A stretch of DNA of 64,000 nucleotides from Minisyncoccota bacterium (GCA_035385585.1 DAOOKJ010000002.1:595-64594); one strand, 5' to 3'; positions 1,558 to 53,480 are shown, counted from the stretch's first letter. Notes: generated from the letters alone by a model not told the origin. Translations and numbers: made by a program.

Positions 1558-2769
1558 ATGCTTTTTCATTACGTTGCTCAGGACAAACAAGGAAGAATAA
1601 AAGAAGGCAATGTTAGCCAGCCCAACCTTCAGGCAGCTTTAGATTTTTTAGCCAGCCAGAATTTAAAGCCAATTTCAGTCAGACCAATAGCACTTGAAAA
1701 GGCAAAAAAGGGAATAATAATTCGCAAAGAATCATTAAGTTTGACTGATAAAGTATTTCTAACTAAATATCTGTCTTTGATGCTGAAAGTTGGCACTGAT
1801 TTATTTTCTGCCATTGATATTCTAATTGAAGATTTTGAATCAGGGCCAGCCAGGAGATTTTTGCTGGAAATAAGAAGTAATTTGGAAAAAGGCCAGCCAT
1901 TTTATTTGGCTTTTCAAAACCACCCTGATTATTTTTCTCAAGTGGTCATAAATTTAATAAAAGCCGGGGAGAGCGCTGGAAATCTAGAAAAGACTTTGGA
2001 GCAAGTATCTTCTGACCTGGAAAGAGAAAAAGAACTTTCTAGTAAAGTAAAATCCGCCTTAATTTATCCAATGATATTAGTCGCCACCTCGTTTTTTATG
2101 ATTATATTTCTTGCGACTTTCGCCATCCCCAAATTAAGCGAAATGTTTTTGTCAACCGGCAAAGAAGTGCCACTTTATACAAGAATAGTATTAGGTGTTG
2201 GAATGTTTTTAAACCGCTATGTTTTCATTGTTATTCCTTTAATTATCGGCGTTCCTCTGATTTTATATTTTTATTTTTCTAAAAATAAAACAGGGAAAAT
2301 GTATTTTAATAATCTTTTAGAAAAAATTCCCGTAGTGAAGAATTTGGTAGAGAAAATGGCTTTAGAAAGGTTCGCTTCTGTTTTGGGCTCTCTAATTAAA
2401 GCTGGAATGCCAATTATTCAAGCGGTTGAGGTAACTGCTCAGGCAGTTGGCAATCCCAAATATGAGGCTTCATTAAATAGAATTGCAAAAGAATATTTGA
2501 GTAAAGGAATTTCAATCGGCGATTCTTTCAAAAGAGAGAAAATTTTTCCGGCAGTAGTGTCTAATCTATTAGCCATTGGAGAAAAAGCCGGTCACACAGA
2601 AGAGATATTATTTACTTTATCCACTTTTTACGAATCAGAAATAGATGTTGCTTTAAAAACTTTGGTTTCCTTTATTGAGCCGGCTCTTCTTGTTATAATC
2701 GGAATAATTGTTGGCGGTATTGCTCTGTCTTTAATAGTGCCGGTGTATCAGTTAGTGGGACAATTCTAA
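1558..2769 (+). CDS. pilC: Type IV pilus inner-membrane platform protein PilC/GspF family
   Basis: 403 aa, two GspF-type repeats with TM segments; directly follows pilB. Confidence 0.8.
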   Translation: MLFHYVAQDKQGRIKEGNVSQPNLQAALDFLASQNLKPISVRPIALEKAKKGIIIRKESLSLTDKVFLTKYLSLMLKVGTDLFSAIDILIEDFESGPARRFLLEIRSNLEKGQPFYLAFQNHPDYFSQVVINLIKAGESAGNLEKTLEQVSSDLEREKELSSKVKSALIYPMILVATSFFMIIFLATFAIPKLSEMFLSTGKEVPLYTRIVLGVGMFLNRYVFIVIPLIIGVPLILYFYFSKNKTGKMYFNNLLEKIPVVKNLVEKMALERFASVLGSLIKAGMPIIQAVEVTAQAVGNPKYEASLNRIAKEYLSKGISIGDSFKREKIFPAVVSNLLAIGEKAGHTEEILFTLSTFYESEIDVALKTLVSFIEPALLVIIGIIVGGIALSLIVPVYQLVGQF

Positions 2770-2891
2770 AAATAAATCAAAATTCAAAACTCAAAAGTCA
2801 AAATTATAATTCAAAATTTAAATTCAAAATTTAAATTCAAAATGCAAAAGTAAAGATTTTAAAATTTAAACTTTTTACTTGTAATTTCTTA

Positions 2892-2965
2892 CCTGTCTAA
2901 ACCCCGCCCTTTTTGAAAAAAGAGCAGGATTTAGCAGGGTGAAACTTTTGAGTTTTGAATTTATA
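2892..2965. repeat. Imperfect palindromic element aaaccccgccc-tttttgaaaaaa-gagcaggattt, copy 1 of 3, followed by a conserved tail gtgaaacttttgagttttgaatt
   Basis: Copies at 12381..12450 and 53436..53480. Confidence 0.6.
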
Positions 2966-2970
2966 TTTTT

Positions 2971-3474
2971 ATGTGTTTTCATACAAAATACAAAATACAA
3001 AATACAAAATACAGATTCCGCGGCTTTACTCTTGTAGAACTTCTTATTGTTATTGGTATTACTGCTACAATGGCAACGGTTGGCATTGGTTATTATATGA
3101 ACCAGCAAAAAACTAAACTTTTAGAAACCACTGCTCAAGAGATTGTTAGTTATCTAAAATATGCCCAACAAAAATCAATCTCACAAGAACAGGGATTACA
3201 ATGGGGAGTCCATTTTGAAAACCCCTCTTCTGGTCAGGATTTTTACGCTCTTTATACTGGGACCACTTATTCTAATCCAATTGAAACAAAATATCTCCCA
3301 GAAGGAATAGAATTTTCTATACCCCAAACAGCAAGTTCAGTCGATATTTCGTTTTCCAAACTCACAGGCAAAAATTATAGTGGAACTAACCAATCTGTTA
3401 CCATTCTATCTACCTTTAATAATGCTACTACCACAATTACTGTTTCTTCTTTAGGATTAGTGACTTATCAATAA
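2971..3474 (+). CDS. Type IV pilin-like protein; 18-aa basic leader then G|FTLVELLIVIGI
   Basis: Class III signal: leader ending in G, Phe +1, Glu +5, hydrophobic helix; leader is encoded by a 4x AAAATAC heptanucleotide repeat. Confidence 0.75.
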   Translation: MCFHTKYKIQNTKYRFRGFTLVELLIVIGITATMATVGIGYYMNQQKTKLLETTAQEIVSYLKYAQQKSISQEQGLQWGVHFENPSSGQDFYALYTGTTYSNPIETKYLPEGIEFSIPQTASSVDISFSKLTGKNYSGTNQSVTILSTFNNATTTITVSSLGLVTYQ

Positions 3475-3522
3475 AGTAGCAATAACAATAATAAAATTTT
3501 ATCGTCTTGATCTATTTTTTTC

Positions 3523-3615
3523 ATGTTTTTCCATAGTCCCATTGACGAAGTCCGCATTTACAATCGGGTTCTTAGTCCCGCAGAAATTCAACAGCACTAT
3601 AACTCCAGACAATAA
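3523..3615 (+). pseudogene. Remnant C-terminal tail of a LamG (concanavalin A-like) domain, IDEVRIYNRVLSPAEIQQHY, in the same frame as the upstream pilin but cut off by two in-frame stops (TAA 3472, TGA 3508)
   Basis: Translation MFFHSPIDEVRIYNRVLSPAEIQQHYNSRQ matches the canonical LamG C-terminal DEVRIYNRALSxxEI motif; frame identical to ORF 2971..3474. Confidence 0.45.
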
Positions 3616-3721
3616 CTGACAGCAAAATTTCTAATTTTAAATTTCCAATTTTAAATTTTTAATTTTATAAATAAAAATAATTTCCTAAAAAATTTAGGCG
3701 GATAAAGTTGGTAATTAATTT

Positions 3722-4750
3722 GTGAAACACCAAATGCTCTTTACAAAATACAAAATACAAAATACAAAATACAGACTTTGTGGTCAATCTCTTTTAGAAC
3801 TTCTTTTATCCATTGCAGTCGGGACAATTTTAATTGGCGGGTCGGTGCTATTAATGACTACTTCTTTAAGAAGTTATCAATCAATAAAACAACGATTAAC
3901 TATTAATTCTTTATCTCGACAAGAAGCAGAGGTTATAATTTCCAAGGCTCAAGATAGTTGGCATAGTGTTTATGATTTAACAAGGGCAACAGATTATTAT
4001 ACTACTTCAACTAATAATGTTTGGAGTTTTAATTCTGGCAAAGAAGAATCCACAATTAATAATGTTTCTTATAGAAGATATTTCCAAGTGTTAGATGCTT
4101 TACGAGATGATTCAGGAAACATCGCTACTTCAGGAAATACTGACCCAAATACTTTAAAAATCAATGTTTTTTTGGAATACGGAATTAATTACAATTCTTC
4201 TTCCAGTTTAGTTTTTTATCTTACTCGTTCTTCTAATAATCAAGTTTTTCAACAGACAGACTGGTCTGAAGGACAGGGTCAAACTGGTCCTCTTCCTAAT
4301 CCCGGAAATAAATTTGATACTTCTACCAATATTAACTTCGCTTCAACAACCGGTTCTATTTATATGGCCACAACGACCATCGCGGCAGAATTAACTTCCT
4401 CTATTTTAGATACCGGTGTTGATGGAGGGGCTGGATTCAATTCGCTTCTTTGGCAAGGAAGCAAAGGAACTAATGGTTATGTTAAATTTCAGATTGCTTT
4501 TTCTAATTCTATTACTGGTCCTTGGACGTATTATGGTTGTACAACTATTCCTTCTTCTTGTTTGAATCCAAATAATTGGACAACTGCCAGCAGTTCTTTG
4601 GCTGCTTTAGAACCAAACACCTCCTTACCTTTGCCTTTTTATAGTACTCCTAGCCCTCAGAATAAACGTTATATTCGCTATAAAATTTTTCTTTCCACTT
4701 CTGGCACTTCTCCTCAAATAAATGATATAATAATAAACTGGAGCCCGTAG
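3722..4750 (+). CDS. Large pilin-like protein (prepilin-type N-terminus G|QSLLELLLSIAVG, Ser/Thr/Asn-rich body)
   Basis: Same KYKIQNTKY leader repeat as gene 2971; Glu +5; hydrophobic N-terminal helix. Confidence 0.65.
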   Translation: MKHQMLFTKYKIQNTKYRLCGQSLLELLLSIAVGTILIGGSVLLMTTSLRSYQSIKQRLTINSLSRQEAEVIISKAQDSWHSVYDLTRATDYYTTSTNNVWSFNSGKEESTINNVSYRRYFQVLDALRDDSGNIATSGNTDPNTLKINVFLEYGINYNSSSSLVFYLTRSSNNQVFQQTDWSEGQGQTGPLPNPGNKFDTSTNINFASTTGSIYMATTTIAAELTSSILDTGVDGGAGFNSLLWQGSKGTNGYVKFQIAFSNSITGPWTYYGCTTIPSSCLNPNNWTTASSSLAALEPNTSLPLPFYSTPSPQNKRYIRYKIFLSTSGTSPQINDIIINWSP

Positions 4751-4789: not shown

Positions 4790-5152
4790 ATGAAACAAAG
4801 CCTCACCGGATCTTTCCATAAAAAATTAAGATTTAAATTAGATAAATTTGTTTCTTTAATTTATCAACTTACTAAAAATTTTCCGAAAGATGAATTATAT
4901 GGAGTTACTTCTCAATTAAGACGTTCTTCTCTTTCAATAATTTTGAATTATATCGAAGGTTATGGTAGAATGAAAAGTAAGGTATACCAAAATTTCATAG
5001 AAATTTCTTACGGCTCCTTAAAAGAAACTAAATATTTACTATACTTTTCTTATAAGGAAAATTATCTTTCTTTTGATGAATATCAAACAACTATACAACT
5101 ATCGGAAGAAATAGGAGCAATGCTTTATGGGATTTTAAAAAATATAAAATAA
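4790..5152 (+). CDS. Four-helix-bundle protein (23S rRNA intervening-sequence protein family, TIGR02436-like)
   Basis: 120 aa, helical pattern and size typical of the family; flanked by inverted GAAACA-heptamer repeat arrays. Confidence 0.55.
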   Translation: MKQSLTGSFHKKLRFKLDKFVSLIYQLTKNFPKDELYGVTSQLRRSSLSIILNYIEGYGRMKSKVYQNFIEISYGSLKETKYLLYFSYKENYLSFDEYQTTIQLSEEIGAMLYGILKNIK

Positions 5153-6639: not shown

Positions 6640-8156
6640 AAAACAATGTTCAAAAAAAGTTTAAAATTAATTGGCAAAAGTTATTAGTGCCTGAGTTTAG
6701 AATTTATGGCGTTTCTTTAAATGATTACGAAATTAAAATTTTCTGCTTTGATAAATCCTTAAATAAAATTTCTACTGTAAATAAATTTGTTTTGCCAGCA
6801 GGAATTATTAAAGAAGGTATTCTTCAAAATCCCGAGGCTTTCAAATCTTTTTTTAGTTCGTTAAAGGAAAAACTATGGCGAAAAGAAAAAAATGTCTGGA
6901 TAATCTTGTCATTACCTTCGGCAAATTTTTATATTAATTATTTTTCTTTGCCAGAATTAAGCGAAACTCAATTAAAGGACGCGGTAATTTTTAATGCTCA
7001 AATGGCAGCCCCTCTCCCCCTAGAAGAATCTTATTTTGATTGGGAAGATTGGGGACTATCGCAAAAAGAGTTTGAAAAAGAAATTTTTATCGCTTTGGGA
7101 ATTAAAAAACAAATTGACCCCTATTGGGAAATCTTTAAAGATTTAGGTCTAAAGATAGTGGCTATTGAGCCTTATGCTTTGTCTTTAACCCGTTTCGTCT
7201 ATAATTTTTTGGAACAAGAAGAACCGGTTTTAATTATTGATGTTAGAAATGATGGGATGGAGTTTGTAATTAGTGAAGGGAAGAAACTTATTTACTTTGA
7301 TTACGATTCCTGGCATGAAATTTTCGGCCAGAATATTCCTCAAAAAATTCTGCCTTCTCATTTAGAAAAACATCTTTTAAATGAAATCCCGATGATTTTA
7401 AACTTTTATTCTTTAAAAAGGCAAAAATCGTTAAAAAGATTTCTTCTTTTAAGCGAAAATGACCAATTATTGGTTTACTTTTACGATTGGCTAAACAAGA
7501 ATTATGGCTTAAATCCCTTGGAATTTAATGTCCCTCCTTTTTTAAAGAACCTTAAAAGAGATTGGGCTGGAGTGGTCGGTTGTGCTTTACGGGGGTTGAT
7601 TTCGCGGGGAAAAGACACTATTGTTTCCTTGGCGCCAATTCAAACCGAAGAGGATTATTATCAATCGCATTTAATAAGCACGGTTTCTTTATGGCTTAAA
7701 ATTATTGTTACTGTTTTGGGGTGTTTTACTTTAGTTTATGGTCTTGTGGATTATGCTCTGTTTATTAGAACAGAAAAAAGGTTTGCGGCTGACGCCATAG
7801 CTGCGCTTAACCCAACTATTCTGCAAAAACAAGAACAACTGCAAAGATCAGCCGATGAATTCAATACTTTAGTCCGAAAGGCAGAAGCAATTAATACTTT
7901 TAAAAAAGATTTTGCTGCTATTTTGAATGAAATTAGTAACCAAACAAAAGATTCTATTACTTTAAAAAGGATTTTTATCACTGATAGCGGTACTTTTAAC
8001 ATTACTATCACCGGAGAGGCAAAATCAAAAGAGGCCATTGTTAATTTTAAGCAGACATTGGAAGAAAAACGGATCCTACAAGATTCTTCTTTGCCGCTTG
8101 AAGCGATGGTGGAAACTCCTCAGGGGGTTAGTTTCATTTTGAACGGAAAGTTATAA
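6636..8156 (+). CDS. PilM-like actin-fold pilus assembly protein fused to a TM segment and PilN-like C-terminal region
   Basis: 506 aa; ~350-aa N-terminal region, one TM helix (VSLWLKIIVTVLGCFTLVYGLV), coiled-coil/periplasmic tail; 4-bp overlap with upstream gene. Confidence 0.45.
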   Translation: MKNNVQKKFKINWQKLLVPEFRIYGVSLNDYEIKIFCFDKSLNKISTVNKFVLPAGIIKEGILQNPEAFKSFFSSLKEKLWRKEKNVWIILSLPSANFYINYFSLPELSETQLKDAVIFNAQMAAPLPLEESYFDWEDWGLSQKEFEKEIFIALGIKKQIDPYWEIFKDLGLKIVAIEPYALSLTRFVYNFLEQEEPVLIIDVRNDGMEFVISEGKKLIYFDYDSWHEIFGQNIPQKILPSHLEKHLLNEIPMILNFYSLKRQKSLKRFLLLSENDQLLVYFYDWLNKNYGLNPLEFNVPPFLKNLKRDWAGVVGCALRGLISRGKDTIVSLAPIQTEEDYYQSHLISTVSLWLKIIVTVLGCFTLVYGLVDYALFIRTEKRFAADAIAALNPTILQKQEQLQRSADEFNTLVRKAEAINTFKKDFAAILNEISNQTKDSITLKRIFITDSGTFNITITGEAKSKEAIVNFKQTLEEKRILQDSSLPLEAMVETPQGVSFILNGKL

Positions 8157-8160
8157 CAAA

Positions 8161-8325
8161 GTCTACCCTCTCTGCCCCAATACTGCTTCGGCACCGGCTG
8201 TCGGCTCGCTCCAGCCGCTGAGCCGCAGCCTAAGCTCTCGGCCTGACGGCTCTTTCGCTTCGCTCAAGACCAAGCCCGTCAGGCCTGCGAGGTTTGCTTC
8301 AGCAGTATTGGGGCAGAGAGAACAG
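8161..8325. repeat. GC-rich structured intergenic element: perfect outer palindrome (ctctctgccccaatactgc...gcagtattggggcagagag) enclosing a ~110-nt GC-rich core with nested inverted repeats; homologous to the element at 19709..19840 in opposite orientation
   Basis: Direct sequence comparison; ~60% GC against an AT-rich background; lies immediately 3' of a plus-strand gene. Confidence 0.7.
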
Positions 8326-8381
8326 CAATGAGACATTATTCTTAAGAGAGTATTTATTATATAGAGAATTTCTTATTTTTT

Positions 8382-12314: not shown

Positions 12315-12380
12315 GTGTTGATATAAGGTGTAGCAATTAGCCGCATTGAATTTTAAATAAATTTAAATTTTGAGTTTCTT

Positions 12381-12450
12381 GTCCGCCCAAACCCCGCCTT
12401 TTTTGAAAGAAGAGCGGGATTTGGACGGGTGAAACTTTTGACTTTTGAAT
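12381..12450. repeat. Palindromic element copy 2 (between the mreB promoter and the mreB start)
   Basis: gtccgcccaaaccccgccttttttgaaagaagagcgggatttggacggg + gtgaaacttttgacttttgaatt. Confidence 0.6.
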
Positions 12451-12460
12451 TATTATTAAT

Positions 12461-13468
12461 ATGTTAGTCCGTCATTTGGGCATAGATTTGGGTACTGTCA
12501 ATACTTTAGTTTTTATTCCAAAAAAGGGCGTCGTAACAAACGAGCCCTCAATTGTTGCTATTACCATTGATGACAACAAAGTTTTAGCGATTGGCTCAGA
12601 AGCCAGAGAAATGTTAGGTAGAACTCCAGAAATAATTAAAACTTATAAACCGTTAAAAGACGGCGTAATAGCCGATTACCGAGTTACTCAGGCAATGCTT
12701 AAATATTTTATTGATAAAGCATTGGGACCATGGCGTTTAGTTAAGCCTGATGTAGTAATATCGGTGCCGGCAGGAATTACCTCAACAGAACAAAGAGCAG
12801 TAATTGAAGCAGCCCGAGAGGCTGGCGCAAAAGAGGCTTATGTAGTAAGAGAACCAATTTTGGCCGCTTTAGGTGCTGAAGTGCCAATAAATTCTCCTCA
12901 GGGAAATATGATTGTCAACATCGGTGGCGGGACAACAGAGGTAGCAGTAATTTCTTTGGGAGGAATTGTTAGTTGGTTTTCAGTAAGAGTAGGAGGTATT
13001 AAAATGGATGAAGCAATTGCCGATTATATAAAGAAAAAATACAATTTAGCAGTTGGAGAAAGGACGGCTGAGAATATAAAAATAGAAATCGGCACTGCTT
13101 TACCTTTAAAACAAAAACAGGAAATAGAAATTAGAGGATTAGATTTAGGGGAAGGTTTACCAAAAAATATTATTATGAATTCAAATGAAATTGTTGAGGC
13201 AATTCAAACACCGCTTCAGGAAATTATCAAAGCAGTAAAATATGTTTTAGCCGAAACCCCTCCAGAATTAGCGGCTGATATTATGGAAAAAGGAATGTTT
13301 ATTTCTGGCGGCGGCGCTCTTTTAAAGAATATCGATGCTTTAATTACTAAAGTCACAGGAGTGCCAAGTTATATTGCTGAAGAGCCTCTTTTCTGCGTTG
13401 CTAAAGGAACAGGGGTAATTTTAGATAATTTAGAACTTTATAAAAGAAGCATTACCACTTATCGATAA
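12461..13468 (+). CDS. mreB: Rod shape-determining actin homologue MreB
   Basis: GIDLGTVNT phosphate-1 motif, full actin fold, 335 aa. Confidence 0.9.
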   Translation: MLVRHLGIDLGTVNTLVFIPKKGVVTNEPSIVAITIDDNKVLAIGSEAREMLGRTPEIIKTYKPLKDGVIADYRVTQAMLKYFIDKALGPWRLVKPDVVISVPAGITSTEQRAVIEAAREAGAKEAYVVREPILAALGAEVPINSPQGNMIVNIGGGTTEVAVISLGGIVSWFSVRVGGIKMDEAIADYIKKKYNLAVGERTAENIKIEIGTALPLKQKQEIEIRGLDLGEGLPKNIIMNSNEIVEAIQTPLQEIIKAVKYVLAETPPELAADIMEKGMFISGGGALLKNIDALITKVTGVPSYIAEEPLFCVAKGTGVILDNLELYKRSITTYR

Positions 13469-13493: not shown

Positions 13494-13530
13494 TCTGCTC
13501 TAATATTGCTTCAGCAGTATTTGAGCAGAC
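13494..13530. repeat. REP-like 16-bp-arm hairpin (tctgctctaatattgc-ttca-gcagtatttgagcaga) immediately 3' of mreB; this is the 'empty' form of the outer stem of the 8161 element
   Basis: Arms match the 8161 arms ctctgccccaatactgc / gcagtattggggcagag. Confidence 0.6.
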
Positions 13531-14546: not shown

Positions 14547-14590
14547 AATGTCTTTGTTGGGACAGACATCCATAATACTTAGTTAATTCA

Positions 14591-19700: not shown

Positions 19701-19708
19701 TGTATACT

Positions 19709-19840
19709 GTCTACCTCACAGCCCCAACTGGCTTTCTCTTGAGCGAAGTGAAAGAAGTGAAAGCCGTTAACCCGAGAGTTTAGGCTGTGGCTCAGCGGCC
19801 GGAGTAAACCGACAGCAGGTGCGAAAGGATATTAGGACAG
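19709..19840. repeat. Second copy (inverted orientation) of the GC-rich structured element seen at 8161..8325
   Basis: Reverse complement aligns with the 8161 element (gctgtcgg...ccgctgagcc[g/a]cagcctaa[g/a]ctctcgg...cttcgctcaag, ggggctgtgaggtagac arm). Confidence 0.7.
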
Positions 19841-19862
19841 AAAAAATCACTAAATTTCATTT

Positions 19863-25120: not shown

Positions 25121-25125
25121 TAAAT

Positions 25126-25165
25126 CTCTGCTCTAATATGGCTGAAAGTGTTGGGGCATCCTAGA
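25126..25165. repeat. REP-like hairpin copy immediately 3' of serS
   Basis: ctctgctctaatatggc-tgaa-agtgttggggcatcc. Confidence 0.5.
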
Positions 25166-26095: not shown

Positions 26096-26476
26096 ATGCC
26101 TGAAAAAGAATTAAAAATAATAAGCAAAAGGATTGAAGAAAAAAAATCTCATATTGAAAAAGCCGGTCTTCCAGCCCAGCCGGAAGAATTATTGGTAAGA
26201 GAAACTATTAGTGAGAGGATAGAGGAATCGCTAAAAAATCTACCGCCAATCTCTTCTGATTCAGGCGGCCAACCTTTCACTTCTTCTTTTGCAAAAAGAG
26301 CGGATGATGAAAATCAAAAAAAGCTTCGTGAGTTGGTAGCGCTTGCTTTTGACGAAAGTATTCCTAAAGCAGTCAATTTAGCGCGCAAAACCGGCAATTT
26401 CCACTTGATAGATTCCCTTCATGACAAATTAGTTTTAGCCTTTATTGAGAAAATAAATAAAGAAAAAGCAATATGA
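26096..26476 (+). CDS. Hypothetical protein, operonic (4-bp overlap) with the downstream ATPase
   Basis: 126 aa, acidic, no recognisable motif. Confidence 0.4.
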   Translation: MPEKELKIISKRIEEKKSHIEKAGLPAQPEELLVRETISERIEESLKNLPPISSDSGGQPFTSSFAKRADDENQKKLRELVALAFDESIPKAVNLARKTGNFHLIDSLHDKLVLAFIEKINKEKAI

Positions 26477-28860
26477 ATGCTCTTCTTGCTATTTTAATTG
26501 GTTCGATTGTTTTGATTGTTTTATTATATATTCTTTTCTCTAAAGTTGTTTTTCGTCAAGAAGTAAAAGGCAGTTTAGAGTATCGTTTATTTTTAGTAAA
26601 GGTTCCAAGAGATTTTATCTCTGAAGAACAAAAACAACAAGCCAAAAATTTTTCTCTTTTTGCCAGTTTCTTTGAGCAAATACTTGAAGCTTTTAGTAAA
26701 TATAAAAAGGATTTAATTTTTGAACTGGCAACCCCTTATGATACCAAAGAAATTTGTTTTTACTTTGCCTGCCATAATAAAGACAGCGACTTTGCTATTA
26801 AAAATATCAGCGCTCTTTTCCCTTATATTCAAATTGATGAAATAACGGAAGATTATACTATTTTTTCTCCCAATGGTAAAACCGCTGGCGCTTATCTGAA
26901 ACTGACAAATCATTATGCTCTGCCAATAAAAACTTTTAAAAACTTTGAACAGGACCCAATGGAAACTATTGTCACAGCTTTTACTAAAATTGAACAATTG
27001 GAAGGGGCGGCAATCCAAATTATTCTAAAGCCAGCGGCTGAATCCTGCAAAAAAAGCATTTTAAATATTCGTAAATCTCTAATGGAAGGGAAAGATTTAA
27101 AAGAGGCAATTGCTTTGCCAAAAGATGTTATTTTAAAAACCTTGAAAGAATCAGCTAAAACGAAAAACAAAGAGCAAGAAAAAAATAAGGAAATTACTCC
27201 TCCTAAAATAGACGAAAACCTTATAAAAGCAATTGAAGAAAAAAGTCAGTGTCCTCTTTTCAGTGTGAACCTTCGTTTGATCACCTCGGCTGAAACCCAA
27301 AATCGGGCAAACGATATCTTGGCTCACCTGGAAGGAGCCTTTATGCCCCTAAATAATCCCGTGGGAAATATCTTCAAGGTTATTAAACTTAAGGTTAATA
27401 GAGTTTTAAAAAAATTCGTTTATCTTTTTGCCTTCCGTATTTTTGAACAAAAAACCAGCATTGTTTTAAACTCTTTAGAAATTGCGACAATTTTTCATTT
27501 TCCTCACCCATTCATTGATAATTCCCAAATTAAATGGCTAAAAGCCAGAAGCGCGCCTGCGCCTTTAAATCTTCCTCAAACAGGGGCTTTATTGGGAATT
27601 AATTTTTACAGCGGAGAGGAAAAACAAGTAAGAATTTTAGATGAAGATCGTCGGCGTCATATTTATATTGTTGGTCAAACTGGCACCGGTAAAAGCACTT
27701 TGTTAAAAAATATGTTAATTGAAGATATAAATTCCGGCAAAGGTGTGTGTTTTATTGATCCTCACGGCGATACCGCGGAAGAAATGCTTGGTTTTATTCC
27801 GGAGAATCGTTTTCAAGAAGTAATTTATTTTAATCCTGGCGACTATAAACGCTCTTTCGGTTTGAATATGCTTGATTGGGATAAACGTTTTCCTTTCCAG
27901 AAATCTGCCATTTCCAATGAAATGATAGAAATTTTTGATAAACTTTATGATTTAAAGACAACCGGTGGGCCGATTTTTGAACAGTATTTTAGAAACGCCC
28001 TCCTCTTGTTATTAGACGATCCGAACGAAACACATACTTTAATAGACTTGCCAAGAGTTTTAACTAATCCTGATTACCGAAAAAAACTTTTAGAAACTAC
28101 TCCCAATCCTTTAACCAAAGAATTCTGGATAAAAGAGGCGGAAAAAGCCGGTGGAGATTTAGCCCTGGCAAATGTGGCGCCCTATATTAATTCAAAACTT
28201 AATCCGTTTCTTGCTAATGACCTCGTCAGGCCAATCATTGGTCAGATTCACTCTTCAGTTGATTTCAGGAAAATAATGGACGAGGGAAAAATTTTTATTG
28301 TCAATCTCTCCAAAGGAATGTTAGGCGATATTAACAGCTACCTCTTGGGAATGATAATTGTGGGAAAACTTCTAATGGCTTCTTTTTCAAGAGTAGATAT
28401 TCCAGAAGAACAGAGAAAAGATTTCTACCTCTATATTGATGAATTCCAAAACATTACCACTGATACCGTTGCCACTATTTTTTCTGAAGCCCGTAAATAT
28501 CGATTAGATTTAACTGTTGCCAACCAATATCTTGCCCAATTAAAAGAACCAATTTTAAAAGCGGTTTTTGGCAATGTCGGAACTTTAATTTCTTTTAGGG
28601 TAGGAAAAGACGACGCGGATATTCTAGCAAAATATTTTGACCCGGTTTTCAACGCTTATGACTTAATGAATTTAGACAACTTCAATGCCTATATTAAGTT
28701 AATGATTCAAAACCAGACTTCCCGCGCTTTTAATATAAAAACTCTAAAATCGCCTCCACCAGATATTCAAAAAATAAACTATCTGAAAGAATTTTCTTCT
28801 TTGCAATACACCACTCCTCGTGAAGAAGTAGAAATGGAAATAAGAAAGAGATACGAGTAA
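26473..28860 (+). CDS. TraD/VirD4-like type IV coupling protein family ATPase with N-terminal TM segment
   Basis: Walker A GQTGTGKST, FIDPHGD, Walker B YLYIDEFQN; 795 aa. Confidence 0.55.
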   Translation: MNALLAILIGSIVLIVLLYILFSKVVFRQEVKGSLEYRLFLVKVPRDFISEEQKQQAKNFSLFASFFEQILEAFSKYKKDLIFELATPYDTKEICFYFACHNKDSDFAIKNISALFPYIQIDEITEDYTIFSPNGKTAGAYLKLTNHYALPIKTFKNFEQDPMETIVTAFTKIEQLEGAAIQIILKPAAESCKKSILNIRKSLMEGKDLKEAIALPKDVILKTLKESAKTKNKEQEKNKEITPPKIDENLIKAIEEKSQCPLFSVNLRLITSAETQNRANDILAHLEGAFMPLNNPVGNIFKVIKLKVNRVLKKFVYLFAFRIFEQKTSIVLNSLEIATIFHFPHPFIDNSQIKWLKARSAPAPLNLPQTGALLGINFYSGEEKQVRILDEDRRRHIYIVGQTGTGKSTLLKNMLIEDINSGKGVCFIDPHGDTAEEMLGFIPENRFQEVIYFNPGDYKRSFGLNMLDWDKRFPFQKSAISNEMIEIFDKLYDLKTTGGPIFEQYFRNALLLLLDDPNETHTLIDLPRVLTNPDYRKKLLETTPNPLTKEFWIKEAEKAGGDLALANVAPYINSKLNPFLANDLVRPIIGQIHSSVDFRKIMDEGKIFIVNLSKGMLGDINSYLLGMIIVGKLLMASFSRVDIPEEQRKDFYLYIDEFQNITTDTVATIFSEARKYRLDLTVANQYLAQLKEPILKAVFGNVGTLISFRVGKDDADILAKYFDPVFNAYDLMNLDNFNAYIKLMIQNQTSRAFNIKTLKSPPPDIQKINYLKEFSSLQYTTPREEVEMEIRKRYE

Positions 28861-32726: not shown

Positions 32727-33098
32727 CACTGTAGAACACTTTGAGGCTTGAAGCACCGTATCAAACGGTGTTTTCATTTTAAACATTAGCTTTTCATCCT
32801 TTCACCTCTGTTCGTGCACACTGAATCCATCTATTGAACGAAACCCGAACCTATTTTAGAGAAAATCCCGACGCCGACTTTTAGTTGCCAGCCCGCCGAT
32901 GGCGGGTTGACAACTAAACCCGTCGGCTCGCGGGCAAAAAATTTCTTCACCTAAAACTCCTTTATTCTTTGCCCGCTCGCCGAAATTTCAGCCATTGCCC
33001 GCAAAGCAAGCGTAGATTTTTATTCAATGGATAGTACTATTCCAATTTGGCATATTCTATTATGGAATATATCATAAAGGCAGAGGTAATGTCAAATT

Positions 33099-33863: not shown

Positions 33864-35405
33864 TTATTTTCTTGGTGGACCATAGATTATTATTTCGTGA
33901 GACTCTTTTACATATTTACCATTGCCATTTTTCTTTCTGTTTAGTCCTATTCTTGTTTCTCCTTGCCCCATAGTATATTGCCAACTTGGGAAAAATTGTT
34001 GAAAGTCTTTGTAATATTCTGTTATTGTTGGACAATTATTGTAGGAAAGAATAAATCCTCCTTTGTGATTTTTTAGTAAATCTCGCAGAACCTCGTGGGG
34101 AAATCCATTGTGATGAACTGGAATATTTCTCATTGGGTAAATACCTTTAAACATTTTTGAATCTTTTCCGATATAATAAGGTGGATCGCAGTAGAGAAAA
34201 TCATTGGGATATTTGGGTATTACATCTCGGAAATCTGCACATTCTACTTTTAAGTTCCCTGGTTTAAAATCTCGGATTTTCTCTATCATACTCCTATATC
34301 TTTTATCATTTAGGTAAATTTCTGATGACCAACCCATAAATCCAGGCCCATAAGAGAGGTTAAAGTTGTAGACAAAATAAACAGCCAAAGTAAGGGGATC
34401 TAGTTTTACTTTTTTCTCCCAAACATCTCTTAAAATCAACCTTATTTTTTCAAAGGTTGTTTTATTTGGTTTTAGTTCTTTCAGTTTTTCGTAGAGTAGT
34501 TTCGGCTTTTCTATTTGAAATTTCCAGTAATTGCATAGAATATCAAAAATATCAAATCCGATAACTTCTAATCCCAACTCTTTAGTCATGGCTATTTCAA
34601 TTGAACCCCCTCCAAAAAATGGAGAAATAACTCTTTTTATATTATCCGGTAATAATTCAATAACGTGCCCAACTGCCAAAGTTTTCCCTCCGGCGTATCT
34701 TATAGGAGAAAGAGCAACTCTTTTGTATTTATTTTGACTATTTAGATTTTTACTTCTTATGTGGTTCAAAAACATTTTCTTTTTGTAAGCGAGTGTTTTA
34801 TCTTGAGGAAAGTTTTCCAAATTTCTTATGATTTTAACAACTACGCCCCGTACCTCAACTTCTCTACGATAGATCGGCAGCATAGCTTGATTTGCCGGCT
34901 GTAACCTTATACGATTTTTCTCTCTATAAAGTTTCTTAAGAGTGGCTTCGTTATCGTCGATAATAGCCACCACCGTTTGGCCGTCATCGGCGGTTTCTTG
35001 CTTGCGAATTACAACAATATCGCCATCAAATATACCATCATTAATCATACTATCGCCCTGAACACGCAGGGCATAATATTTCTCATTTGGTCTTATTTCT
35101 TTTTTGGATATAGTAACTTTAGAATCAGACACTTCTATTGCTTCTATAGGTTGACCTGCAGCAATAGTCCCTACGATAGGAATTTTTACAATTTCATCAC
35201 GCTTTGTAGTATCAATAGCGCACGGTTTATTTTCTTCTTTTTCCAGATATCCTAAGTCGCGAAGTTTTGAAACATGAAAGTGAGCCGTTGAGACAGAAGA
35301 AAGCCGGAAATGTTTTGTTATTTCTTCCAAAGAGGGGGCATATCCCTTTTTGTCGGTAAAAGATTTTATAAAGTCTAAAACTTGTTTTTGACGTTTTGTC
35401 AGCAT
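33864..35405 (-). CDS. In-frame fusion: complete LexA repressor (winged-helix, Ala-Gly cleavage site, S24 Ser/Lys peptidase) + Dam-family (D12 class) N6-adenine DNA methyltransferase
   Basis: N-terminal region aligns with LexA (MLTKRQKQVLDFI...; VGTIAAGQPIEA; RVQGDSM...VVIRK); C-terminal region carries RYAGGK, PFFGGGS and DPPY Dam motifs. Confidence 0.75.
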   Translation of the reverse strand: MLTKRQKQVLDFIKSFTDKKGYAPSLEEITKHFRLSSVSTAHFHVSKLRDLGYLEKEENKPCAIDTTKRDEIVKIPIVGTIAAGQPIEAIEVSDSKVTISKKEIRPNEKYYALRVQGDSMINDGIFDGDIVVIRKQETADDGQTVVAIIDDNEATLKKLYREKNRIRLQPANQAMLPIYRREVEVRGVVVKIIRNLENFPQDKTLAYKKKMFLNHIRSKNLNSQNKYKRVALSPIRYAGGKTLAVGHVIELLPDNIKRVISPFFGGGSIEIAMTKELGLEVIGFDIFDILCNYWKFQIEKPKLLYEKLKELKPNKTTFEKIRLILRDVWEKKVKLDPLTLAVYFVYNFNLSYGPGFMGWSSEIYLNDKRYRSMIEKIRDFKPGNLKVECADFRDVIPKYPNDFLYCDPPYYIGKDSKMFKGIYPMRNIPVHHNGFPHEVLRDLLKNHKGGFILSYNNCPTITEYYKDFQQFFPSWQYTMGQGETRIGLNRKKNGNGKYVKESHEIIIYGPPRK

Positions 35406-35670: not shown

Positions 35671-36054
35671 ATGTTTATGATACAGAAACTGAATCTCATC
35701 TGGAATGGTTATTATTCATATAATGATAGTTCCGTTGAGAGAAACGTACCTGAAAGTGCAGGCGTATACAAAATAAGTGTTTCTCAACAAGATAAAACAT
35801 TAAAAGTTCATTACGTTGGCCAAGCAGAAAACCTAAGAAAAAGATTAAAAGAACACCTCGATACTAGTAATGAACAAAATGAATGTCTTGTAGAACACAT
35901 TGAAAAATATGCCTGTAGTTATAGTTTTGCATTAGTTTCAAGACAGGAAGATAGGGATGCTGCAGAGAGAGCATTGTACATTCATTACAAACCGGAATGC
36001 AATGATCCCGATGCTATTCCTAACGTGCCTGATGTAGAAATTAATCCAAACTAA
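35671..36054 (+). CDS. Small GIY-YIG nuclease-domain protein, divergent from the LexA-methyltransferase gene
   Basis: GVYKI...YVGQAENLRKRLKEH matches GIY-YIG motifs. Confidence 0.55.
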   Translation: MFMIQKLNLIWNGYYSYNDSSVERNVPESAGVYKISVSQQDKTLKVHYVGQAENLRKRLKEHLDTSNEQNECLVEHIEKYACSYSFALVSRQEDRDAAERALYIHYKPECNDPDAIPNVPDVEINPN

Positions 36055-36098: not shown

Positions 36099-36254
36099 AT
36101 CTTAACATAAAAGTATGTCAGAAACATCATCACATAAAAGAGTGAAAGGACACGCAGCCGGTAAAAGTGGCGAAACAGAAAAGAAAATTAAATACGGTGG
36201 ACGCATTGATGTTTTTATTTTATTTCACGCAGATTCTAATGTGATTCAGGGCAC

Positions 36255-36345
36255 GGAGCCGTGCACCACGTAGGGTGCACGGCCATGAACCCAGCGTGGT
36301 TTATGGCTAATTTCAAAAAGCCTCTATTTATGAGGCTTTTTTATT
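36255..36345 (+). repeat. Two-hairpin structured element (ccgtgcacc-acgta-gggtgcacgg; ccatgaaccca-gcg-tggtttatgg) followed by its own terminator hairpin; copy 1 of 2
   Basis: Second near-identical copy at 37018..37102; the two copies flank gene 36397..36936. Confidence 0.6.
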
Positions 36346-36936: not shown

Positions 36937-37017
36937 AATTATAGTTGAGGAGATAAGTCAGGAATGAAAATTGCTTTTCTGTTCGTGATAAACCAGCTTA
37001 TGACTGCCTAAACCCCT

Positions 37018-37102
37018 GTGAGCCGTGCACCACGTAGGGTGCACGGGCCATGAACCCAACGTGGTTTATGGCTTTTTAAAATCGCCCAAAAGGCGATTTT
37101 TT
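37018..37102 (+). repeat. Copy 2 of the two-hairpin element plus terminator hairpin (aaaatcgcccaaaaggcgatttttt)
   Basis: About 90% identical to 36255..36308 over ~55 nt. Confidence 0.6.
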
Positions 37103-39848: not shown

Positions 39849-40202
39849 ACTGGTAATATTTTAAACTATAAAATGTAATAAAGTCAATTCCTAGAGTTTA
39901 AGAGGTTATAAGTACTTTATAAATTGTTGCAAATTGATTAGCTGTCTCTTTGTCGCAGAATAATTTTTTTAAATTTAAAACATTAATTTGTTTAATAATC
40001 ACCATTATCGTCACCGATTCCGTGATAAAAATCCCTCATTATGTCTTAAAAATACCTAAATTTAGCGATCATTAGAATTTCTTCCGAAACATTAAAGGAA
40101 GAAATGTGGCCCCCGACCTTAAAAAAGCCATATGGCCCTAGGAATTACCTAAGGCTTTTTTTATTTCACACAGGTTCTAATGTAATCCAGTATTCGGAGC
40201 TA

Positions 40203-40262
40203 CTATTGACTCTTGGTTTTATTTATAGTATGATATAAATACCTTGTAATAGGGTATTTTAA
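40203..40262 (+). promoter_or_regulatory. Promoter-operator module TTGACT-17-TATGAT followed by palindrome atacc-N9-ggtat; paralogous copy at 45569..45628
   Basis: ~85% identity over 55 bp between the two copies. Confidence 0.5.
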
Positions 40263-45568: not shown

Positions 45569-45628
45569 ATTGACTTTTAATTTTATTTATAGTATGATAT
45601 AAATACCAAGTAATAGAGTATTTTTGGT
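45569..45628 (+). promoter_or_regulatory. Second copy of the TTGACT-17-TATGAT promoter-operator module
   Basis: See 40203..40262. Confidence 0.5.
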
Positions 45629-50670: not shown

Positions 50671-50715
50671 AAAGTTATTTAATCTGCTTTAAAACTTATT
50701 CGCTCGAACTGGCAT

Positions 50716-50746
50716 TAGGGGTTTGCTGAAGCAGTATTGAAGCAGA
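50716..50746. repeat. Partial REP-like copy (ggtttgctgaagcagtattgaagcagac) 3' of the hydrolase gene
   Basis: Matches ggtttgcttcagcagtattggggcagagag at 8291..8320. Confidence 0.45.
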
Positions 50747-53435: not shown

Positions 53436-53480
53436 ACCCAAATCCCGCTTTTTTTTGAAAAAAGAGCAGGATTTAGGCGA
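53436..53480. repeat. Palindromic element copy 3 (directly after the ddl stop)
   Basis: acccaaatcccgcttttttttgaaaaaagagcaggatttagg. Confidence 0.55.

Follow-up and report, generated by a model that had tools for sequence, protein, structure and literature searches.

Described Palindromic Repeat Systems

The ERIC (or IRU) sequences of the Enterobacteria are MITE-like imperfect palindromes of about 127 bp. They are long palindromes that lie, in either orientation, in transcribed spacers at gene 3′ ends, with internal insertion and deletion variants and occasional intragenic copies. The Correia (or NEMIS) elements of Neisseria, the classical bacterial MITE, are non-coding, with perfect, conserved terminal inverted repeats (TIRs) of about 20–26 bp, a body of 100–150 bp and a TA duplication; there are more than 100 copies, present or absent at the strain level. 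In transcripts, Correia and ERIC elements are acted on by RNase III and RNase E: the co-transcribed Correia elements have their paired TIRs cleaved by RNase III, and ERIC alters the fate of mRNA through RNases (PMC10969869). The RPEs of Rickettsia, palindromes of about 150 bp, occur in spacers and also in frame in protein genes, to which they add a tolerated hydrophilic peptide (PMC10969869). The REPs (with BIMEs and REPINs) are extragenic palindromes of 20–40 nt downstream of genes, where they stabilize mRNA 3′ ends; they number hundreds per genome, have a conserved 5′ tetranucleotide, and are accompanied by a RAYT gene. The mobile GC clusters, double-hairpin elements and repetitive hairpin-forming elements of fungal and sponge mitochondria are lineage-specific GC-rich hairpin inserts of AT-rich compact genomes, found in spacers and coding regions and in both orientations (PMC2800124, in part). 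The attC sites of integrons are imperfect palindromes right after stop codons, with a variable structured center, a crossover inside the right arm, and an outer right arm that comes from the target. The genomes of CPR bacteria are tiny and streamlined, and are usually regarded as poor in repeats and mobile DNA.

In a CPR bacterium of the Candidatus Paceibacterota, we describe repeats that are best read as a new structured family of the ERIC, Correia and RPE kind, confined to a narrow lineage of that group. On balance, we favor the whole of the following reading: the repeats are lineage-restricted, non-coding, non-autonomous, GC-rich structured palindromes, which decay by internal deletion and act as stem-loops in mRNA. 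The family shares with ERIC the position, the two orientations, the internal variants and the occasional intragenic copy; it has no sequence similarity to ERIC, forms a GC-rich three-way junction where ERIC forms a single hairpin, is present in far fewer copies, has an unconserved stem sequence, and resides in a CPR host. Like Correia, it has perfect TIRs, a body of similar length, no coding function, and strain-level presence or absence, but copies are few, no TA or other clean duplication was found, and it is the core instead of the arms that is conserved. Its bare hairpins look REP-like, although the REP features of size, number, tetranucleotide and RAYT gene are lacking: the units are of 160 nt, there are 5–6 sites in 64 kb plus 18 kb, and no Y1 transposase domain was found among the window ORFs scanned. 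The mitochondrial inserts, which are alike in composition, placement and orientation, differ in being organellar, usually shorter, and unrelated in sequence.

The Copy at 8161–8325 and Its Relatives

The window, by which we mean the whole 64,000-nt stretch of DNA that was analyzed, carries housekeeping genes, those of a CPR bacterium. Among GTDB representatives, the nearest is a Candidatus Paceibacterota MAG with a holB 85% identical; relatives are called Minisyncoccia in other sources. The members of the family in the window are the following.

8168–8187, plus strand: left closing-stem arm of the full-length type-A copy, CTCTCTGCCCCAATACTGCT, the perfect 20-bp complement of 8301–8320
8188–8300, plus strand: GC-rich type-A core, 113 nt, 64–73% GC; two hairpins, folding into a three-way junction with the closing stem
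8301–8320, plus strand: right arm of the closing stem, AGCAGTATTGGGGCAGAGAG
13494–13529, plus strand: bare hairpin, arms only; 16 bp, 4-nt loop, one mismatch and one G·U pair
14548–14569, plus strand: sixth remnant, downstream of holB, ATGTCT..TTGTTGGGACAGACAT, matching the sister species’ “empty” allele exactly
19706–19845, minus strand: second, older type-A copy; one arm kept (19829–19841), the other truncated
25125–25160, plus strand: degenerate bare hairpin, paired on the plus strand only, via four G·U pairs
50683–50746, plus strand: internally deleted type-A copy; left arm, 3′ third of the core, right arm

The original prediction was of an unannotated repeat family in which five plus-strand genes are trailed by related palindromes, the one at 8161 being perfect and built around a core of about 110 nt, with a reversed copy of that core at 19709 and an “empty” hairpin at 13494. 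These statements hold: the five sites exist, Rfam has no match to them, the 8161 copy has 20-bp arms around 113 nt, the sequence blocks named for the core recur at 19709, and the 13494 hairpin has the predicted arms and loop apart from its mismatch and its G·U pair. The arms recur above chance, a 17-mer with up to three mismatches occurring four times against 0.07 expected. A regular expression for the arm finds exactly the five predicted sites and none other in the window and the two loci reaching about 8 kb past each of its ends (about 18 kb). Every site starts 5–26 nt past the stop codon of a plus-strand gene, the preceding genes being pilMN, mreB, an mreD-like gene, serS, and a hydrolase gene.

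The GC content of the core of the 8161 copy is to be set against 33% for the window overall. The 181-nt region at 8161 folds with a minimum free energy of −94.3 kcal/mol on the plus strand and −100.7 on the minus strand (z-scores of −7.8 and −6.8, respectively), which none of 200 shuffles equals; folded as DNA, it gives −55.3 (z = −8.0). The family unit is about 160 nt long, with a closing stem of 20–29 bp around the two hairpins of the three-way junction. Copies are found both ways round, and the window inventory comprises two full copies (about 76% identical, in opposite orientations), one internally deleted copy, two bare hairpins, and one further remnant.

The reversed copy at 19706–19845 is 76% identical over 130 nt to 8171–8293 and scores 107 bits with a covariance model, R1, built from three type-A copies. 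Its spacer is identical in sequence in eight contigs, and the copy looks fixed in the strain contigs. Two of the palindromes proved to be other than predicted. The one placed at 50716 exists, but it starts at 50683 and retains about one third of the core; it is 76% identical to 8282–8322 by repeat comparison, folds with −20.9 kcal/mol on the plus strand against −14.3 on the minus strand, and is apparently fixed in the window population, since the gene-to-gene spacing is equal in 10 of the 10 contigs listed. The site at 25126 also exists, although its pairing is confined to the plus strand (−12.6 kcal/mol, against −3.3 on the minus strand).

We infer that these copies form a decay series, from full through partial and bare to degenerate hairpin, by internal deletion. 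Given the intermediate at 50683–50746, with its partial core, and the self-complementary TGCTTC(A/G)GCA at both core boundaries, the bare hairpins are better read as remnants of internal deletion between these repeats than as targets for insertion. The same self-complementarity accounts for an apparent target-site duplication at the edges of the insert (8184/8296), which is intrinsic to a self-complementary helix segment (TGCT..AGCA).

Other repeats were seen in the window. A third hairpin family, CCCAAA(C/T)CCCGC...GCGGGATTTGG, lies in spacers after genes at 2896–2937, 12386–12427, and 53438–53479, in part within a 106-nt repeat (2869–2974 and 12359–12464); the covariance models of the element detect it only through its generic long stem. 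An unrelated GC-rich motif of about 60 nt, GCCGTGCACCACGTAGGGTGCACGG..CCATGAACCCA.CGTGGTTTATGGCT, is repeated at 36240–36310 and 37017–37075, its leader being found also at 40156–40200. A terminator-like hairpin and a T run come after each copy; Rfam has no match to the motif, which could represent a family of small RNA genes or a cis-regulatory RNA. Two copies of a 56-nt repeat, at 40205–40260 and 45569–45624, are 89% identical; the repeat has a TTGAC box and an AT-rich stretch and looks like a shared promoter or leader. Perfect heptanucleotide repeats (TACAAAA, 4.6 units) at 2981–3013 and 3742–3773 lie at the 5′ ends of two pilin-like ORFs, where they could cause slipped-strand phase variation.

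Gain and Loss between Strains and Species

Contigs L001 and L012, from strains of anaerobic-digester samples (such as JGI 3300010347, 3300010338, and Ga0067045), represent one sister species. Their identity is 98.9% to each other and 82–89% to the window in DNA, with which they are fully syntenic. Over the approximately 20 kb that can be compared, this species lacks the 13494 hairpin, which is missing from its spacer, and the 19709 copy, which is absent at the orthologous site; none of three type-A or hairpin sites is common to the two species. In turn, a full type-A copy lies downstream of holB in L001, with 93% identity to 8161–8325, the flanking genes being 85–87% identical. It occupies exactly the position of the remnant at 14548–14569. 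The same site is empty, with only ...AATGTCTTTGTTGGGACAGACATCC..., in L012, in ten further conspecific contigs (L050–L060), and in the window. Recurrent deletion is a less parsimonious account of the empty sites, as it would set 11 empty conspecifics and the outgroup against a single filled strain.

The spacer after pilMN, ahead of a metallo-β-lactamase-fold gene, is occupied differently. Where the window has 8161–8325, the sister species carries another GC-rich element, type B:

L012 1969–2128, L001 7050–7209, and L010 1625–1784: type-B element of the pilMN spacer, orthologous to window 8157–8373

In type B, 19-bp arms, AACCCAGAGGAATAAGTTC, enclose an imperfect hairpin rich in GAGCGA, and the element folds with about −87 kcal/mol in the sense direction and −75 in the antisense. 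L010 is a window-like strain, its pilMN being 100% identical to that of the window, and it carries its own variant of type B, 95.6% identical to the sister-species copy; A and B are thus alleles within the window species. Between the two species type B diverges by 4.4%, and its flanking genes by 13–15%; of five substitutions that fall at paired sites, four preserve sense-strand pairing, and the apical loop is inverted between the lineages (TGC versus GCA). Type B also looks constrained.

In more distant relatives (holB identity of 55–59%), the gene order is the same, the genes overlap or are separated by spacers of 4–20 nt, and there is neither a GC island nor an element. The polymorphism, together with these relatives lacking elements in the same operon, indicates insertions specific to a small clade, at least one of them recent. 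The contigs compared thus document a family that came into the narrow gaps between the genes of a conserved, closely packed operon, and did so in this lineage only, with one site polymorphic within a species and another carrying the unrelated elements A or B in strains of one species.

Some contigs were set aside as possible chimeras and do not enter as evidence, namely those with apparent A/B or hairpin polymorphisms in the sister species (L028/L002 and L050). L028/L002 (ERZ27257460 k141_450586) and L050 (Ga0116252_10130852) switch from 100% window-like to 99–100% sister-like sequence exactly at element-bearing spacers, and either are assembly chimeras of co-occurring species or are genuine inter-species recombinants. 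In addition, five of ten contigs end exactly at 8156.

The L001 Insertion Junction

With a slash marking the junctions, the filled site of L001 reads ...CTTTGTTG/ATTTAATGTCTGTCCCAACACTGC...core...GCAGTGTTG/GGACAGACATCC, and all empty sites read ...CTTTGTTG/GGACAGACATCC. This is the only junction that can be dated, by comparison with the 11 empty strains. It shows a 5-nt repeat, TGTTG, one copy of which lies inside the right arm; no target-site duplication is visible at the other copies. From the alignment of filled and empty sites, it follows that the outer 10–15 nt of the right arm pre-existed in the target. This target itself, with ATGTCT on its left and TTGGGACAGACAT on its right, looks like an older remnant of the family, left by deletion.

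There are only two haplotypes in this block, L001 differing by about 1.6% from all others over at least 5 kb, and for this reason the filled/empty comparison at holB is taken as provisional. Three explanations may apply: a homology- or base-pair-guided re-insertion at the remnant, a recombinase that acts on a folded single strand within its right arm, or the same deletion having happened twice.

Compared with a MITE, the family has the terminal inverted repeats (20 of 20 positions at 8161, 19 of 19 in L001) and multiple non-coding copies that are present or absent between close relatives, though these copies are few. The sequence of the arms is not conserved across the wider family. By these comparisons the conserved part is the folded core, the stem sequence being free to vary, which is the reverse of a MITE defined by its transposase. 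This reversal and the odd L001 junction are the two unusual traits of the family.

An Ancient Relative within a Gene

Model R1 also finds, with 21.7 bits, a relative of the element in the same genome (contig L026, 5919–6077), about 0.4–0.55 kb upstream of where the window begins. It has the architecture of type A, with the two-hairpin core and 20-bp arms, the latter unrelated in sequence to those of type A. Unpaired motifs are common to both: GCUUGGU, CGAGA, and GCUGGAGCGAG. A diverged relative with the same core and a different closing stem implies that stem and core are one ancient unit. On the same contig, at 1871–3894, there are two LAGLIDADG homing-endonuclease ORFs among GC-rich islands, probably within intron-bearing rRNA genes, which are common in CPR.

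The relative lies in frame within a gene for a 275-aa membrane protein adjoining pilB. Orthologues of 197–204 aa lack the corresponding hydrophilic segment of about 45 aa, and others, at 46–80% identity, retain it; three have different inserts. This is the arrangement of an RPE insertion, absent from some orthologues. RPEs, however, are found in many unrelated genes, and here a phmmer search of 1.84 billion representative proteins with the encoded peptide recovered the orthologous family only.

The DNA of four orthologues of the in-gene copy (46–100% protein identity) aligns without gaps. In this alignment, the proportion of paired cells is 96.1% and both sides have changed in 14 of 58 pairs, values reached in none of 500 shuffles; slid controls give 36–46% pairing. 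A second model, R2, built from the in-gene relative, matches the window at 8158–8328, on the minus strand only, with 51.4 bits (E = 1.9e-11), and the L001 copy with 50.5 bits. When two type-A copies are added to the in-gene sequences, making six, the proportion of paired cells is 93.6% and compensation is seen at 35 of 58 pairs, 26 of them among the 29 of the closing stem; this alignment leans towards structure, as it was fitted to the model. Compensatory changes thus exceed both the shuffled and the slid controls. By this comparative evidence the ancient in-gene relative has kept its fold through many compensatory changes, and what is maintained would be the fold and not the stem sequence. 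Gene conversion from arm to arm could mimic covariation of the closing stem, a less plausible explanation for the inner hairpins. A catalytic core like that of the hammerhead or pistol ribozymes, suggested by CUGAUGA in one orthologue, was considered and rejected, as this stretch lies in a covarying stem and lacks conservation.

Searches for Known Relatives and a Mobile Partner

At the gathering threshold, no Rfam (15) family matches anywhere in the whole window. Scans of both full copies at permissive E-values returned only noise (sX11, Pistol, MIR839, and raiA-hairpin, best E 1.4–9), and those of the in-gene copies returned nothing. The doubts that had accompanied the original prediction were that there might be no further copies and no covariation, or that the core might be a known RNA or an rRNA fragment. 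Further copies and covariation are present, and no known RNA family or rRNA matches. The 23-nt core pattern GCTGAGCCNCAGCCTAANCTCTC has no match in 185,579 GTDB representative genomes and a single match in the JGI metagenome contigs, which is L001. A shorter core pattern gave seven matches in IMG/VR, all rejected as chance identities of 17–22 nt, and BLASTN of types A and B against phage and plasmid collections gave no match. The spurious 57-aa ORF on the element matches only itself among 5.8 billion proteins. Our full-text literature searches gave no relevant account of such repeats in CPR bacteria.

No transposase, integrase, or reverse transcriptase domain is encoded in the 30 window ORFs scanned, or listed in the precomputed Pfam annotation of the remaining window and the extensions of about 18 kb. 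Nor was an autonomous partner, an IS or a transposase with the same ends, found in the window, its extensions, and the related loci (about 100 kb in total). The pilus locus contains a gene of the bAvd/23S-rRNA-IVP family (4790–5152), with no reverse transcriptase seen in the window; a link to a retroelement or DGR was considered and found no support, given that neither the 30 scanned ORFs nor the annotation of the others includes an RT domain. The pilus and competence context also raised DNA uptake sequences as a candidate, rejected on the count of just 5–6 sites in 64 kb.

Elsewhere in the window, the segment 32655–36054 has, downstream of tRNA-Asn, a GC-rich hairpin (32860–32940), a minus-strand ORF (33864–35405) in which a LexA DNA-binding domain and an S24 peptidase are fused to a D12 adenine methyltransferase, and a GIY-YIG protein (35671–36054). 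Together with a VirD4/TraG-like ATPase (26473–28860), these genes may mark an integrated element.

Alternative Readings

The original prediction left a choice between a small non-autonomous element and a structured RNA. Both halves have support, mobility in the strain polymorphism and structure in the covariation of a diverged paralogue; the accompanying idea, that the core is inserted in a loop, does not stand as it was put. A functional structured RNA family, cis-regulatory or processed into a small RNA, whose copies arose by duplication and are not selfish, is possible, if unlikely. Such an RNA might, for instance, bind a protein through GCUUGGU and the common GGAGCGAG, or act in catalysis. 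The strong covariation, the persistence of the fold within coding sequence down to 46% protein identity, and the unpaired motifs common to type A and the in-gene copy all speak for it, as do the occurrence of GGAGCGAG in type B as well, the slower evolution of types A and B than of the neighboring genes, and the GC-rich island within an AT-rich genome. It is harder to reconcile with an inconsistent orientation relative to transcription, with decay to bare hairpins and absence from the sister species and relatives, or with the interchange of the unrelated A and B at one site; Rfam has no match, and the scans revealed no dedicated promoter or terminator. At the other extreme, to regard the sites as ordinary intrinsic terminators or chance palindromes has next to nothing to recommend it beyond hairpin formation and a location at gene 3′ ends, and is already effectively refuted. 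The palindromes had been called terminator-like, but no T run follows any of them (3′ flanks CCCTAAAAC, AACAGCAATG, and CAAAAAAC) and the terminator scan flags none; moreover, the arms recur far above chance, and the 113-nt core is conserved between loci and between species.

The remaining alternatives concern how the element is inserted. A two-part system, in which a separate mobile GC-rich core inserts into a resident REP-like hairpin, is improbable in our view. The bare hairpins at 13494 and 25126 would be its unoccupied targets, the core is bounded by the TGCTTC(A/G)GCA repeat (a perfect 10-mer in L001), and the L001 element does sit within an older remnant hairpin, using its outer right arm. 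To that extent, the predicted insertion into the loop of a pre-existing hairpin is partly echoed, yet the junction is in the right arm and not in the loop, and the insertion brought along a complete left arm. The boundary repeat is the two halves of a self-complementary helix, the copy at 50683–50746 is an intermediate with a partial core, a core without arms was not found, and the in-gene relative joins the same core to a co-evolving stem of wholly different sequence. Just as improbable is a single-stranded DNA hairpin serving as a recombination substrate, by the logic of integron attC, the folded attP of CTX phage, or IS200/IS605, the folded stem being bound by a recombinase that exchanges strands inside the right arm. 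The L001 junction indeed falls there, at G/TTGGGA, its left arm has TCCCAAC, near the RYYYAAC and GTTRRRY boxes of integrons, the target supplies the outer right arm, as happens when a cassette is inserted, GT[TG][AG][AT] lies 4–16 nt to the left of the arm in every copy, and the elements follow stop codons. But the attC consensus is partly matched in one copy only: L001 comes close (TCCCAAC, GTTGGGA), and the 8161 copy has CCCCAAT and ATTGGGG. The stem runs 10 bp past the putative crossover, an integrase, an HUH transposase, and a cassette array are absent from about 100 kb, the flanks are syntenic housekeeping genes, and the two inner hairpins are dissimilar, unlike IS200/IS605 ends. It is tempting, finally, to imagine that the element is directed, through homology or base pairing, to sequences that match its own stem arm, and uses the target to restore its closing stem, a self-templating, guide-like insertion, the fold being kept also in a coding gene for a function of host or element. 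In the L001 insertion, all the empty sites already have 15 nt of the right arm, to which the incoming left arm is perfectly complementary. Such a model predicts arms that vary but stay paired and cores that are nearly constant between young copies, and the young copies have arms that differ at 5 of 20 positions, still perfectly paired, and cores that differ by just 7%. Even so, we consider it distinctly unlikely.

The reading as non-autonomous palindromic repeats has points against it as well. Copies are few: 80 kb contain about two full ones, and a 298-kb contig of the sister species has a single exact match to the core. The arms, which in a classical MITE are the conserved part, are the least conserved part here. 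Both the missing autonomous partner and the want of a clean target-site duplication count against it too.

Possible Role in the Transcript

Since the elements have no promoter- or terminator-like sites of their own in the promoter and terminator scans, and lie between co-directional genes, they would be co-transcribed with the operon. A stem-loop of −85 to −100 kcal/mol would then form in the polycistronic mRNA just past the stop codon. By analogy with REP, ERIC, and Correia, it can be expected to block 3′ exonucleases or offer a site to RNase III, so that the elements may serve in 3′-end protection, processing, or insulation between cistrons. New copies would arise seldom, either with the help of a trans-acting enzyme or, in an organism that is naturally competent, by copying guided by homology or microhomology.

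Which strand is transcribed differs among the copies. The G-rich strand, which corresponds to the conserved sense fold of the in-gene relative, is sense in that relative and at 19709, and antisense in the two youngest copies, L001 and 8161; at 8161 it is the minus strand. In type B, the better-folding G-rich strand is also sense. A strand-specific RNA role therefore cannot hold for all copies, the conserved-fold strand being antisense in 8161 and L001; the closing stem, for its part, folds on either strand. The G·U pairs of the hairpins fall on the sense strand, and among the one-sided changes in the four in-gene orthologues, by the pair-table count, about 19 cells are G·U on the mRNA-sense strand against about 6 on the other. 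This excess could be attributed to a C-to-T mutation bias instead of selection.

Significance for CPR Genomes

The tightly packed operons of CPR bacteria are evidently able to accept structured inserts of 160 nt, and even to exchange them between strains. Such elements may break metagenome assemblies and yield chimeric contigs of co-occurring species, which matters for the quality of CPR bins. The family also amounts to a natural experiment, in which the same fold exists as young copies in spacers, as decaying remnants, and as an old, translated copy in a membrane protein. It thus allows one to ask whether palindromic elements are kept for the host, in mRNA processing or stability, or for themselves.
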